Positions 28,030-40,283 of a stretch of 64,000 bases of DNA are shown here, in pieces. The translations under genes and the position numbers were made by a program. Source of the stretch: Escherichia phage Ecwhy_1. A model generated the notes under the pieces. The model was not told where the DNA came from. It saw only the letters and a list, made by a program, of their open reading frames with translations, and searched no databases. Within the stretch, counting starts at the first letter, position 1. Each line of letters starts with the position of its first letter. The DNA lies in sequence record MH791411.1, one strand, 5' to 3'.

Positions 28030-28035
28030 ATTAAT

Positions 28036-28064
28036 ATGCCAGTACTTGATACTGGCTTTTTTGA
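28036..28064 (+). terminator. inter-paralog terminator hairpin (example; recurs after most RCC1-like genes)
   Basis: GCCAGTACTTGATACTGGC + TTTTTTG. Confidence 0.55.
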
Positions 28065-28096
28065 TTAAATATAGTATAATGAATAAAGGAGGAAAT

Positions 28097-29206
28097 ATGT
28101 TACCTTTTGTAAGAATGGTTAAGTACGGGAATATTGCACCAGTACCGAAAAAAATAAAGAAAGTTATAGCAGGATATGATAATTTATATGTACTATATGG
28201 TGATGGTTCGCTATATGGTTGTGGAATCAATAACTATCAACAGTTAAATATTGATGGAACTGCTACACAAAATAATTGGGTACTAATTACCAATGGTGTT
28301 AGTAATGCATGGGCTGGTGGATACAATATTTTATATTTGAAAGAAGATAAATTTATAATGCACGGAACTAATGTCTCATTAGGTTTAGGAAATACTACAA
28401 TTCCATTAGGTGGAGTAGATGTAACTTCTTCATTCCCAGATATCTCTAATATTAAAATGATATCCATTGGTTTTGATTCAATGCACTATGTTAGTGCTGA
28501 TGGTACAACTGTATATGGAAGAGGTATGAACACAAATGGTTCTGTTGGTTCAGGTAGTACTTACTCACAGAGTACTTTCACTTCAGTACTGAATAATGGA
28601 ACTAATCAGGTTATTGATATATTTGGTAACGTTAATAATACAGTGCTTCTAACATCGAATGGTGAGCTTCGAGCATGTGGGACAAGTGCTTATGGTTCTA
28701 TAGGAAATGAAACTGGTAAGTGGACATCGTTTGGTTTAAAATTATCTGGCACTAAAATAATGGGTGGTAATGGGTATAGTACGCTTGCATATACAAATTC
28801 GGGAATGTACCACTCAGGGTGGCAGTTAAATGGGGAACTAGGAAATGGTTTAGATACTAACGTACAGGTATATCCATTTCAATTTAACTCTAAAACGATA
28901 GATAGCAAGATAGATAAAATTGCCAAATCATCATCTGGGTCATATGTTAACATGTACTCAACAACAGAAGGAAAGATATATACGACAGGTTCGTTTGGTA
29001 AAAACGGGTCAACTACTGCATTGAATTTGTTCACCAATACATTAACACTTATAAATTACAATCCAGATACCGCCTCGTTGTATACGTGCACAAACTTCAG
29101 TGTTGTGTATGATGGTAATGAAACTATTGCTGTAAGTGGTAGTCCTACATATGTACCAGGGGGCGTTGCCGCTAATAGATGGACTACAATTCCATTACCC
29201 AAGTAA
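28097..29206 (+). CDS. RCC1-like repeat protein, paralog 2 (369 aa)
   Basis: Start moved to MLPFVRMVKYGN after SD AAAGGAGG; track ORF 27968 reads through junction. Confidence 0.75.
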   Translation: MLPFVRMVKYGNIAPVPKKIKKVIAGYDNLYVLYGDGSLYGCGINNYQQLNIDGTATQNNWVLITNGVSNAWAGGYNILYLKEDKFIMHGTNVSLGLGNTTIPLGGVDVTSSFPDISNIKMISIGFDSMHYVSADGTTVYGRGMNTNGSVGSGSTYSQSTFTSVLNNGTNQVIDIFGNVNNTVLLTSNGELRACGTSAYGSIGNETGKWTSFGLKLSGTKIMGGNGYSTLAYTNSGMYHSGWQLNGELGNGLDTNVQVYPFQFNSKTIDSKIDKIAKSSSGSYVNMYSTTEGKIYTTGSFGKNGSTTALNLFTNTLTLINYNPDTASLYTCTNFSVVYDGNETIAVSGSPTYVPGGVAANRWTTIPLPK

Positions 29207-29277
29207 TACTATGCCAGTACTTGAGTACTGGCTTTTCTTTTTGATTAAATATAGTATAATGAATAAAGGAGGGAAAT

Positions 29278-37840: not shown

Positions 37841-37892
37841 TACTGGCTTTTCTTTTTGTATTAAATATAGTATAATGAATAAAGGAGGGAAT

Positions 37893-39044
37893 ATGTTACC
37901 TTTTGCAAGAATGGTTAAGTACGGGAATATTGCACCAGTTCCTGTAGTTCCTACAATAAAAGATTTTAAGATTGGATTTTCACATGAAGTGTTATTGGAC
38001 AGTGCAGGTGATGTATGGGGTATTGGATACAATACAGATGGACAGTTGGGATTTCTGGATGCTAACACAAATTCAATAGGAATGTGGTCTAAGATACATG
38101 AGAATGTTAGATTAATTGGCGTTACTGCCAATTATACTGTAGTTGTTACAAATGATAATAGAATACTTTACGCCGGAAATAACTTAATTTCTAGTACTAC
38201 AACGCTTGGGTGGAACGATATAACGTCCAGTATGGGAGAGGTTGCAGTGGATAGTATAGATACATTATATTGCACAGATGGAATGATGCATATTAAAACT
38301 GCTGATGGCTCTTTATATGCATATGGACGTAATATGAACGCGAACGCTGGAGTTACAGGCGTTTCTGGCGTTATTAGTGTTGCAACTAAAGTTAGTGGTT
38401 TACCATCGGCAGTGAAGGATATACGATATACGTTTAGTTATGGTTCAGTACTATGCCAATTTGATACCACTTCGGTATATGGATGGGGAAGAAATGTCAA
38501 TGGTGAATTAGGTCAGGGGAATGCAGCCGCAGTTCCTGCCCCATACCTATTGGCGGGAGCTTCTATTGTTATAGGTACTTCTTATAATGCTACTGCCATT
38601 GTTTCTGGTACTGGAACGTTAGTTACATGTGGTGGACAAAATAATGGTCAGTTAGGTAATGGTATTACTACTGCTGGTAATGTATACATATATGGTGCTA
38701 GGTCATACCCTGGCGATCTTAATAATATAAGAAGTCCAGTAGATTGTAGTACAACTTATACTTCCGCATTTATGAGTACAGATGGTATATATTACACGGG
38801 TTCGAACCGAAGTGTTTTTGGTGGTGCGAGTGGTTCTGCTACTGTTGCATTATATACTAAATGTAGTGATTTGCCAATATTATATTCCAATATAACTCAG
38901 TGGGGTAGTGGTACTATTGGTGGGGCGATATGTAGCAGAACTGAATTATATCAGTGTGGTACAGGTAGATACATTGCCGGAGATGGACAGAACGCAACTA
39001 GGTATGGGTTTAGAAAGACACCATTACCTTGGGATGTTTATTGA
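37893..39044 (+). CDS. RCC1-like repeat protein, paralog 10 (383 aa)
   Basis: MLPFARMVKYGN; SD AAAGGAGGG. Confidence 0.75.
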   Translation: MLPFARMVKYGNIAPVPVVPTIKDFKIGFSHEVLLDSAGDVWGIGYNTDGQLGFLDANTNSIGMWSKIHENVRLIGVTANYTVVVTNDNRILYAGNNLISSTTTLGWNDITSSMGEVAVDSIDTLYCTDGMMHIKTADGSLYAYGRNMNANAGVTGVSGVISVATKVSGLPSAVKDIRYTFSYGSVLCQFDTTSVYGWGRNVNGELGQGNAAAVPAPYLLAGASIVIGTSYNATAIVSGTGTLVTCGGQNNGQLGNGITTAGNVYIYGARSYPGDLNNIRSPVDCSTTYTSAFMSTDGIYYTGSNRSVFGGASGSATVALYTKCSDLPILYSNITQWGSGTIGGAICSRTELYQCGTGRYIAGDGQNATRYGFRKTPLPWDVY

Positions 39045-39114
39045 AATAATGCCAGTACTCTGTACTGGCTTTTCTTTTTGATTAAATATAGTATAAAGAA
39101 TAAAGGAGGGAATT

Positions 39115-40251
39115 ATGTTACCTTTTGCAAGAATGGTTAAGTACGGGAATATAAAAGTAAAGAGTACTATACAAAAAGTTATACTTGGTGGTGGTGGTCA
39201 ATGTGTGGTAACATTACTCAGTGATGGTAGAGTGTATGGACGTGGTTACAACACTACACATGGGTTAGGTACTGGTACAACAACATTCGTAAGTGATTGG
39301 GTATTAATGGGAGATAATATTGTTGATATCCATTCAAATGGTGTTACTGGAACATTCCTTATTACCAAAGAAAATAGAATATTGTATTCTGGTTTTGCGA
39401 CACCAATCAATGGCACAACATCACATTATACACGTTTCACTGATTTAACATCAACTGTATTTGCTGCGGTGGATGTTAGTAATATTAAAACAATTACGGG
39501 AAATGGTAATGTTACAATGGTTCTTTTGAATGATGGTTCACTTTATGGGAGTGGTGCAAATATAGGGGTTATAGGTAATGGTAGTAACGTTGCATTATCA
39601 ACACAAACATATGTGACTAATGATGTGCGTGATGTGAAAACATATCCATCAATGAACACTATAACAAAAAATAATAATCAAATATTGGCTAGTGGTATTT
39701 TATACCAAGGCGTGAACGGTACAAATTCATCAATAAACACGTCTTCATATACATTACTGTACACATTACCGAGTTCTGATTGTTTTCAATTTGCATTTGA
39801 TACATATACATTTGGATATGTTGACCCTAGTACTAACACTTCTTATATAAGAGGTATACCAATAAATGGTTCATTAGGTAATGGCGTTACTAATAATACA
39901 GCAGTTACAACATGGGTTACTAAAGTTTGGAATACACCAATTGATAGTTCTATACCTAATAAATCATATACAACTAACCATGTCTCCTTGTTCAATGATG
40001 GAAACTTATGGACAACTGGTGCATCTAGTGTAGGTTATTCCAATGGTACAAATAGCACAACAGCTAATACATGGACCAGTTCATCTAATTTACCATTCAA
40101 CACTAATAACATAACAGACTATGCTTTTGGTGGTAGTATTACTGTAGTGGTAATCGACTACAGGACTATGTACATACTAGCTAACAACGCCATTGCTGGT
40201 ACTGCTACGACAACTTATAAATTTGAGCCATATAATTCTCCACCAGTTTAA
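39115..40251 (+). CDS. RCC1-like repeat protein, paralog 11 (378 aa)
   Basis: MLPFARMVKYGN; SD AAAGGAGGG; -10 variant TATAAAG. Confidence 0.75.
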   Translation: MLPFARMVKYGNIKVKSTIQKVILGGGGQCVVTLLSDGRVYGRGYNTTHGLGTGTTTFVSDWVLMGDNIVDIHSNGVTGTFLITKENRILYSGFATPINGTTSHYTRFTDLTSTVFAAVDVSNIKTITGNGNVTMVLLNDGSLYGSGANIGVIGNGSNVALSTQTYVTNDVRDVKTYPSMNTITKNNNQILASGILYQGVNGTNSSINTSSYTLLYTLPSSDCFQFAFDTYTFGYVDPSTNTSYIRGIPINGSLGNGVTNNTAVTTWVTKVWNTPIDSSIPNKSYTTNHVSLFNDGNLWTTGASSVGYSNGTNSTTANTWTSSSNLPFNTNNITDYAFGGSITVVVIDYRTMYILANNAIAGTATTTYKFEPYNSPPV

Positions 40252-40283
40252 TATAATGCCAGTACTATGTACTGGCTTTTCTT

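Follow-up and report, generated by a model that had tools for sequence, protein, structure and literature searches.

Composite cassettes that join a stem-loop terminator to a promoter are known from T4-like phages as promoter-early and promoter-middle stem-loop elements (PeSL and PmSL; Arbiol et al. 2010, PMC2839356; Comeau et al. 2014, PMC4122927); recombination between flanking PeSL copies yields excised mini-circles (PMC2839356), and PeSL-like elements also occur in T-even phages, at the hypervariable loci for the internal proteins (IPs) that are packaged in the virion (Repoila et al. 1994, as related in PMC2839356 and PMC4122927). The subject here is a repeated element of similar build in a stretch of 64,000 nucleotides (the window) from Escherichia phage Ecwhy_1 (MH791411.1), an Asteriusvirus-type jumbo coliphage of the PBECO4/121Q group, in which near-identical DNA separates tandem genes for RCC1-like proteins. 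This junction DNA is probably a PeSL-type composite cassette, and the RCC1-like genes are probably autonomous late units shuffled through cassette homology. The literature on these phages counts the RCC1-like genes and notes that they differ, no description of the cassette or of unit-level shuffling having been found there, and the Sharanji paper leaves the array unmentioned.

The junction cassette and the genes it separates

A module of hairpin, T-run, promoter motif and Shine-Dalgarno (SD) sequence does recur between the paralogs, as reported in a first-pass annotation of the window made from the sequence alone. Eight copies of a 32-mer, TTGATTAAATATAGTATAATGAATAAAGGAGG, occur at no more than 2 mismatches (starting at 28061, 29241, 32881, 34132, 35353, 36617, 37857 and 39078), all on the + strand and against 0 expected, and 11 hairpins of the junction family lie within the array. 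These hairpins have inverted CCAGTAC arms, a stem of 7-11 bp and a loop of 3-8 nt, and are followed by a T-run; the palindrome as first written, GCCAGTACT-N3-GTACTGGC, is exact at three junctions only (29213, 34105 and 35323), the inverted repeat at the other junctions being a variant, either with TCA, TCT or TAT as its loop or in the imperfect form GCCAGTACTTGATACTGGC. Between 25 and 43 kb, terminator-like sites number 23 against 7.1 +/- 2.6 in shuffles, and sigma-70-like promoter matches are not enriched (75 versus 95.9). The motif TAAATA-N3-TATAA is common to every cassette variant (canonical, C>D, head-of-array and unit L, in the lettering used below) and within the window is restricted to the array, with 11 copies where 0.58 are expected and 11/11 of them ahead of paralogs; every unit is preceded by it except unit E, which has no cassette, and it also stands ahead of paralogs in all related arrays.

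Conservation continues into the genes. The region from -40 to -1 is identical among paralogs bar indels of 1-2 nt, and mean pairwise DNA identity, counted ungapped from the ATG, is 94% over nt 0-18, 82% over nt 18-36 and 33-39% beyond +36; the conserved block, first put at ~70 bp, is actually ~110 bp long and runs 36 nt into each coding sequence (CDS). Units A-K all open with ATGTTACCTTTTG (MLPF...), and all 12 genes with ATGTTACCTTT(T/C). Cassette sequences are conserved across divergent members of the group (G17, PBECO4 and Salmonella phage SD-6), and in IMG/VR the cassette core is held by one contig only, itself a 348.5-kb Asteriusvirus.

The array also exceeds the 28030-40283 to which it was at first confined: the 12 RCC1-like paralogs of the window span 26881-42136, unit A (26881-28029) lying earlier and a twelfth paralog (41012-42136) later. 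The array is transcribed rightwards, with leftward blocks on both sides, and its products, of ~380 aa and ~40 kDa, carry the Pfam domains RCC1, RCC1_2 and RLD and share 18-29% pairwise identity. Units and junctions are as follows (dG, folding free energy; ORF, open reading frame).

26846-26880, + strand: head-of-array promoter and SD of unit A; perfect TATAAATA at 26846-26853 overlapping TAAATATGATATAA at 26848-26861; no hairpin upstream
26881-28029, + strand: unit A CDS, RCC1-like paralog, first of eleven contiguous units A-K (26881-40251)
28030-28096, + strand: cassette A>B; hairpin 28038-28056 (dG -10.0), T-run, 32-mer 28061-28092
28097-29206, + strand: unit B CDS, RCC1-like paralog
29207-29277, + strand: cassette B>C; hairpin 29213-29232 (dG -13.2), 32-mer 29241-29272
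29278-30459, + strand: unit C CDS, RCC1-like paralog
30460-30535, + strand: variant cassette C>D; hairpin 30464-30491 (ATACCAGTACTG..CGTACTGGTAT, dG -13.7), T8, TAAATACATTATAA at 30500-30513, SD GGAG
30536-31729, + strand: unit D CDS, RCC1-like paralog
31730-31737, + strand: cassette-free junction D>E; only GAGGAATT ahead of the ATG, the stop TAG overlapping the SD (ATAGGAGGAATTATG)
31738-32847, + strand: unit E CDS, RCC1-like paralog
32848-32917, + strand: cassette E>F; hairpin 32854-32872, 32-mer 32881-32912 (1 mismatch)
32918-34097, + strand: unit F CDS, RCC1-like paralog, frameshifted
34098-34167, + strand: cassette F>G; hairpin 34102-34127 (dG -15.7), 32-mer 34132-34163
34168-35313, + strand: unit G CDS, RCC1-like paralog
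35314-35389, + strand: cassette G>H; hairpin 35319-35346 (dG -15.7), 32-mer 35353-35384
35390-36580, + strand: unit H CDS, RCC1-like paralog
36581-36652, + strand: cassette H>I; hairpin 36588-36606, 32-mer 36617-36648
36653-37840, + strand: unit I CDS, RCC1-like paralog
37829-37892, + strand: cassette I>J; hairpin 37829-37847 overlapping the unit I stop, 32-mer 37857-37888 (2 mismatches)
37893-39044, + strand: unit J CDS, RCC1-like paralog
39045-39114, + strand: cassette J>K; hairpin 39051-39069, 32-mer 39078-39109 (TATAAA replacing TATAAT)
39115-40251, + strand: unit K CDS, RCC1-like paralog
40258-40276, + strand: terminator half alone after unit K (hairpin only)
40284-40934, - strand: ORF of 216 aa between units K and L, at the same position in WPEC3, EC.P1 and fEgEco12; match to phrog_34359, function unassigned; no match in a Pfam search
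41012-42136, + strand: unit L, twelfth paralog, after the minus-strand ORF; diverged promoter half TAAATAAAGTATAA at 40981-40994
42141-42167: hairpin of the same family after unit L, AATCCAGTACTATTATAGTACTGGATT, with T-runs on both sides

Both exceptions pointed out in the first-pass annotation hold on the printed junctions. The 4-to-5 junction (D>E, 31730-31737) is cassette-free and, given the overlap of stop codon and SD, units D and E are probably co-transcribed and translationally coupled; the 3-to-4 junction (C>D, 30460-30535) is a variant reading ATACCAGTACTGAAATACGTACTGGTAT, a T8 run and then GTAAATACATTATAAT, and this variant is kept at C>D or C>U junctions of relatives. No promoter half follows unit K because the next gene lies on the opposite strand, and the hairpin at 42141-42167, flanked by T-runs on both sides, is probably a bidirectional terminator closing the array.

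Unit F is broken, its MLPF frame ending after 59 codons at a TAG (33095) and the propeller resuming in another frame from ~33040, with a one-base offset near GGACGGAAAC. The interruption is also present in WPEC3 and ECO103 at 99.9% identity, and in EC.P1 the locus is annotated as two overlapping CDS, one of 180 nt followed by a longer one; the break may mean that F is a pseudogene, that the records share a sequencing artefact, or that a +1 frameshift operates.

Exchange of whole units between related phages

By megablast, the array (28000-40300) matches solely Escherichia and Salmonella jumbo phages of the PBECO4/121Q/G17 group (genus Asteriusvirus, genomes of ~350 kb), with single-place coverage of at most 72% in every record and matches split over up to 10 places per record; the right flank (42200-54500), serving as control, also reaches just 75% coverage in the best records, owing to endonuclease-gene indels, so that mosaicism of the array is not thereby shown to be unique. 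Clustering of unit bodies at >=80% DNA identity gave 28 unit types from five arrays, in the orders below, the arrays of EC.P1, PBECO4, SD-6 and CMSTMSU being used for pattern counts only.

Window: ABCDEFGHIJKL
WPEC3: ABCUNEVFGHIJTWKL
ECO103: ABCUXNEFGHIJQYV (cut by record end)
fEgEco12: ABZCDEGJHQYabKL
G17: MNEOAPHQRST (cut)

Whole genes are gained, lost and re-ordered in these relatives, with breakpoints at the cassettes. Shared units are 97-100% identical across phages, their neighbours differing; unit V occupies different places in two phages, and unit A stands fifth in G17 with its own promoter half. Junction zones, defined as stop codon to ATG+36, make up 8.2% of the array, and the breakpoints, taken as internal ends of blastn high-scoring segment pairs (HSPs; >=500 bp, >=90% identity) between the window array and four other arrays, lie 0-17 bp from a junction zone in 17/17 cases, the outcome predicted when this comparison of related genomes was first proposed. 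At junctions set side by side, identity spans hairpin, promoter and leader and collapses after ~+36 in the non-shared neighbour. The U|N junction of WPEC3 equals U|X of ECO103 to ~+41 and X|N of ECO103 from ~+30 (crossover window +30 to +44), from which it follows that unit X was gained or lost via a crossover in the leader codons. An internal control is provided by unit E, which is preceded by D or its relative N in 5/5 arrays; D|E (N|E) is never a breakpoint, which fits the earlier suggestion of sub-operons. The b>K junction of fEgEco12 joins exactly at the ATG, with no hairpin there.

Among 40 distinct junction types from the five arrays, with hairpin and motif called by regular expression plus inspection, 32/40 carry both hairpin and promoter motif, 7/40 neither, 1/40 the motif only and 0/40 the hairpin only. 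The seven cassette-free types keep the SD only, often overlapping the upstream stop; their genes are evidently translated from a bare SD, and hence the extra 24 conserved nt of the cassette are not a translation signal.

The 36-nt leader encodes 12 codons, MLPF(V/A)R(M/L)(F/V)(D/K)YGN, whose M1, L2, P3, F4, Y10, G11 and N12 are, G11 aside, the only invariant non-glycine residues of the family. Its synonymous sites are fixed far beyond codon usage: across the 28 unit types of five phages, TTA is used in 28/28 (46% in gene bodies), CCT in 28/28 (34%), AGA in 26/27 (42%) and GGG in 21/27 (11%), a pattern that points to a nucleotide-level cause, be it selection acting on DNA or RNA, repeated recombination or conversion, or the two together. 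Unit B, modelled with AlphaFold2 from an 11-paralog alignment, is confidently predicted to be a beta-propeller (predicted local distance difference test, pLDDT, 85.7; predicted template modelling score, pTM, 0.86) in which residues 1-13 have pLDDT <50 and no secondary structure and lie outside the propeller, with a Pro-rich linker next; in this model the leader, the best-conserved stretch of the family, appears to stand outside the fold, as expected of a short docking or targeting peptide. A role of the leader as a 'velcro' strand closing the propeller was considered and finds no support, residues 1-13 being unstructured in the model. A search of 100 kb of PBECO4 beyond the array gave no leader DNA, and the leader shows no obvious LxE-type protease site.

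Two leader haplotypes, linked in codons and nucleotides, are spread mosaically among unrelated units (e.g. 26881 and 28097; all 12 leaders): GTT AGA ATG TTT GAT TAT (VRMFDY) and GCA AGA ATG GTT AAG TAC (ARMVKY). They could be two docking classes or traces of conversion. A link of the family to the virion comes from mass spectrometry (MS) of phAPEC6 virions, in which eight ~30-42 kDa proteins of the array locus were detected with 1-5 peptides each (gp003, gp005-007, gp009, gp010, gp549 and gp551; six annotated 'DNA condensation protein' and two hypothetical; PMC7247149); these are taken as array paralogs from their annotation, size and position.

Candidate terminator, promoter and rival readings

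Every junction hairpin of the five arrays folds (50/50; RNA dG -8 to -16 kcal/mol, mean -12.6), and T-rich runs lie 3' of the hairpins on the + strand only. Across 27 distinct hairpin sequences compared by RNAalifold, all 7 consensus pairs stay intact, with compensatory double changes at two of them (G-C to A-U, C-G to U-A) and G-U changes at three, and the loops vary freely in sequence and length (3-8 nt); this pattern is more in keeping with a hairpin in single-stranded form (RNA) than with a fixed binding site in double-stranded DNA. The cassette hairpins display the sequence hallmarks of intrinsic terminators (a stable G+C-containing hairpin, a U-tract and conserved pairing), and the public G17 record (MK327931) already marks them as ARNOLD-predicted terminators.

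At orthologous junctions the hairpin interior is found in both orientations (TTGA/TCAA, TCTG/CAGA, CTTGATA/TATCAAG), the hairpins at 34105-34124 and 35323-35342 being inverted relative to the orthologous junctions of relatives and that at 39051-39069 relative to W>K of WPEC3. These are minute inversions of the kind made by template switching or inverted-repeat recombination, and they suggest that hairpins or cruciforms form in the DNA itself.

The junctions have no -35 element at a constant distance, and only two of them show a weak TTGATA or CTGGCA with an 18-nt spacer to TATAGT, and no Mot box was found in the cassettes. The first-pass annotation had described a TATAAT lacking a convincing -35 and had proposed dependence on a phage factor; the missing -35 is borne out, which makes such a factor plausible, and TATAAT itself gives way as the functional element to TAAATA, 3 nt upstream, as the likelier candidate. 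A sigma-70 promoter with its -35 hidden in the hairpin was rejected, since TTGATA (18 nt to TATAGT) occurs only at junctions with the TTGATACTGGC loop and the T-run varies in length, so that the hidden geometry is not conserved.

T4-type late promoters, which depend on gp55, consist of a TATAAATA box ~6-8 nt upstream of the start site and have no -35. In the window TATAAATA is depleted (3 versus 13.7 +/- 3.9 expected), and 3/3 copies lie 27-45 nt upstream of genes, namely unit A, the only one in the array with a perfect box, and two genes whose products are homologous to annotated virion structural proteins. PBECO4 has six copies in its structural module, all of them ahead of genes (major head protein, gp519, baseplate hub, endonuclease VII, gp531 and hub gp535); other structural genes there carry NNTAAATA, and the tail-fibre gene is preceded by ATAAATATAGTATAT, a near-match to the cassette's TTAAATATAGTATAA that shares TAAATA-TAG. 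TAAATA-CGT-TATAAT also occurs before gp368, an unrelated virion structural gene alone on its strand, and PBECO4 gp530 is annotated as a late sigma factor (gp55-like). On such comparisons the cassette promoter is best read as a variant of the T4-type late promoter with the core TAAATA, TATAAT lying at the initiation region.

In the mechanism proposed, the intrinsic-terminator hairpin and T-run would end the upstream transcript, a promoter without -35 and with the core TAAATA-N3-TATAA(T) would be read late, most likely by host RNA polymerase with a phage gp55-like late sigma, a strong SD, AAGGAGG, would follow 4-6 nt ahead of the ATG, and the first 12 codons (the MLPF leader) would close the cassette. 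Each RCC1-like gene would be an autonomous late transcription unit, with the exception of D-E type pairs that have no cassette, and the ~110 bp of near-identity per junction would serve as a portable homology patch, at which unequal or inter-genome homologous recombination inserts, deletes and re-orders genes with the expression of neighbours undisturbed; the same recombination, or gene conversion, would homogenise cassette and leader while gene bodies diverge.

Several points weigh against this mechanism. Internal cassettes read ATTAAATA, matching 6/8 positions of the T4 late box, and in T4 that box, TATAAATA, tolerates little change. Phage CBB and like relatives reportedly have no gp33 and gp45 homologues (PMC5259590), so that late transcription in the group may differ from that of T4. 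Owing to shared phage ancestry the HSP ends are not independent events, and no p-value is given for them; co-occurrence of hairpin and motif is also expected from their joint inheritance as one repeat; and an alignment as shallow as 11 sequences could by itself account for the leader's low pLDDT, with no real disorder behind it. No promoter or transcriptome work on Asteriusvirus was found in the literature, and the roles in termination and initiation, like the late timing and the role of the leader, are inferred from sequence.

The strongest competitor, itself unlikely, takes TATAAT as a true sigma-70-type -10 without a -35, helped by a phage early or middle factor or a phage sigma, which would make the genes middle and not late. 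The hexamer is a perfect -10 in most copies, the absence of a -35 element at the cassettes suits such a promoter, and the genus encodes a sigma-70-family sigma besides the gp55-like one (PBECO4 gp356, CBB_513); however, cassettes that are otherwise intact can have another base for the critical last T (TATAAA ahead of unit K, TATAAC ahead of unit L and in several relatives), the element invariant over all cassette variants being TAAATA, and a start ~7 nt past TATAAT would fall on the SD or 1-3 nt before it, giving an unusually short leader. The other sigma-70-type promoters of the window all carry clear TTGACA or TTGCA -35 boxes, and, going by the phAPEC6 MS and by the annotation, size and position of the proteins detected there, the array products are virion proteins. 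Rather less probable is one long late operon read from the unit-A promoter, with hairpins acting as attenuators or, once the RNA is processed, as 3'-end stabilisers and the 32-mer as a translation-initiation or processing element, for which speak the perfect TATAAATA found at unit A only, a hairpin strength modest enough (-10 to -16 kcal/mol) to make read-through plausible, and the cassette-free junctions, where coupling without re-initiation does occur. Against such an operon, the extra 24 conserved nt are confined to junctions with a terminator ahead of them (both in 32 types, the hairpin alone in 0), unit A and its promoter half lie fifth in the G17 array, and gp368, isolated on the + strand among minus-strand genes, must have its own promoter, TAAATA-N3-TATAAT.

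That the hairpin is instead a DNA site for a site- or structure-specific nuclease or recombinase, attC-like, with exchange targeted by an enzyme, is very improbable. Its arms do hold AGTACT/CAGTAC, ~9-fold over-represented genome-wide, the inverted interiors at orthologous junctions suggest DNA hairpin or cruciform intermediates, the PeSL authors left site-specific recombination possible, and many HNH, GIY-YIG and endonuclease VII genes are present in the genome; yet no integrase or recombinase domain was detected in or beside the array (Pfam, PHROG), whose sole non-paralog ORF has no recognisable domain, an arm spacing that ranges over 3-8 nt is hard to square with DNA binding by a fixed dimer, one crossover has been mapped to the leader, ~90 bp off the hairpin, b>K joins at the ATG without one, and the T-run lies on the + strand side only, as for a terminator. 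The chance that identical junctions are the unmaintained remnants of a very recent tandem duplication is close to nil: duplication does produce tandem arrays, but gene bodies at 18-29% protein identity stand beside junctions and leaders at ~95-100% DNA identity, synonymous sites included, and recent duplication cannot explain junctions between bodies so diverged, with leader synonymous sites fixed.

Two further sets of composite promoters were observed in the window. Strong sigma-70 promoters of near-identical sequence occur by the dozen on the minus strand of the early region (1-20500), for instance ahead of 2866-3138, 3228-3635, 6160-6483 and 10561-10773; a GGGGAGAA-N4-TTCTCCCC hairpin comes after each, within the 5' leader of a small ORF, which makes these repeated regulatory cassettes a second PeSL-like family. 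A third family of composite elements, GGGTTGACTTCGGTCAGCCCTTTTTGCTATAAT, has its -35 hexamer TTGACT within the terminator stem and the T-run as spacer to the -10, and lies upstream of the minus-strand genes 44680-45450, 46851-47090, 48380-48895, 52958-53371, 53799-54050, 54122-55633 and 59565-60005; at the virion gene 54122-55633 the hairpin of this family is followed by TATAAATA instead.

Sequence context, meaning and known systems

The AGTACT of the hairpin arms, a 6-bp palindrome and ScaI site with the preferred context CAGTACTG, has 286 sites in the window (e.g. 8109, 9734, 16161 and 20720) and 499 in 164 kb with PBECO4 included, against 56 expected (~9-fold), and GTACTG, CAGTAC and AGTACT are the top three over-represented hexamers. 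All three reading frames contain it, its density is 3.4 per kb in coding and 10.2 per kb in intergenic DNA, and it stands twice in the consensus of the early promoters, AAAAAGTACTTGCA-N9-tcAGTACTGTATAAT (-35 flank and spacer), and once per array-hairpin arm. Amino-acid or codon usage was rejected as its cause, 187 sites being found in ORFs against 50.5 +/- 6.3 in synonymous-codon shuffles; biased repair of the kind proposed for HIP1-type palindromes found no support, one-mismatch neighbours not being depleted. The excess resembles the 'highly iterated palindromes' of cyanobacteria, and no description of AGTACT over-representation was found in the literature. Its density peaks in the window, at 8.6 per kb, left of the array (22167-26774, minus strand), in a run of ~20 tandem head-to-tail ORFs of 59-77 aa, hypothetical in relatives, that may be another paralog array.

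Strong over-representation and a strand bias mark the E. coli Chi octamer, with 12 copies of CCACCAGC (1272, 3074, 4978, 7326, 8575, 9525, 10035, 14314, 21268, 40804, 51449 and 61982) against 3 in the other orientation, GCTGGTGG (14376, 21280 and 28313), where ~0.4 are expected per orientation, which suggests that phage DNA is protected from RecBCD. CCATGG is missing from the window (0 versus 13 expected), as are CGATCG, AGCGCT, AGGCCT, CCCGGG and CGGCCG, consistent with restriction-site avoidance.

Jumbo phages of the PBECO4/121Q group are now the subject of isolation work and of therapy proposals, and their 8-17 RCC1-like genes are annotated merely as 'chromosome condensation' proteins; the 28 unit types in five genomes present these genes as modular, fast re-assorting units, and the connector they share marks out an adaptive hot spot, with host range or counter-defence as its probable purpose. 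The ~110 bp of homology, with its putative terminator and promoter and its ribosome-binding site, may also offer a landing pad for gene insertion in phages that are hard to engineer. A bolder and rather doubtful extension is a 'payload rack', in which MLPF..YGN is a common virion-docking or packaging peptide, the cassette is a standard connector for propellers exchangeable between co-infecting phages, each phage carries its own combination from an open pool, virion-borne propellers serve in host recognition or as injected counter-defence, and recombination is perhaps stimulated by the AGTACT hairpin; were it true, the array would be an analogue in function of the T4 internal-protein loci, with large propeller proteins.

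Set against known systems, the cassette hairpins are like intrinsic terminators in having a moderate-G+C stem directly followed by a coding-strand T-run (dG -10 to -16 kcal/mol) and unlike them in that the stems, built from the genome-wide iterated CCAGTAC/AGTACT, are nearly invariant in sequence. Integrons have an adjacent tyrosine-recombinase integrase and promoterless cassettes. The array shares with integrons and their attC sites a tandem arrangement of individually mobile gene units split by hairpin-forming imperfect palindromes, whereas it has no integrase that could be found, a promoter motif of its own for each unit, exchange points that include leader codons, and homology long enough for general recombination; an integron-like reading was rejected, no recombinase having been found and crossovers lying outside the hairpin.

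IPs of T-even phages are small proteins with a capsid-targeting leader that is cleaved by the prohead protease. By analogy their loci appear to be the closest functional counterpart of the array, with diverse virion-carried proteins in tandem, PeSL-like repeats flanking each gene, a short conserved N-terminal leader, and a number, order and identity of genes that differ between close relatives; unlike them, the array encodes 40-kDa RCC1-like propellers whose leader is known from sequence alone, and the IP-associated elements are based on T4 early promoters. With PeSL and PmSL proper, the junction cassette shares the order of elements (stem-loop terminator, AT-rich stretch, promoter, SD and start codon), the many near-identical copies in a hyperplastic region, the position at breakpoints of indel, replacement and displacement between close phages, and the homologous recombination proposed to act there. 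It differs in a promoter without -35 that looks late (gp55-type) in place of a sigma-70 early (-35, N17, -10) or MotA middle promoter, in a conserved block extending 36 nt into the CDS, in its cargo of one ~380-aa beta-propeller family, virion-associated as inferred via phAPEC6, in place of unrelated small ORFans, and in its carrier, an Asteriusvirus jumbo phage only distantly related to T4. The PeSL concept would thereby be widened past the T4-like phages, to a probably late promoter without -35 and to a connector with a protein leader.

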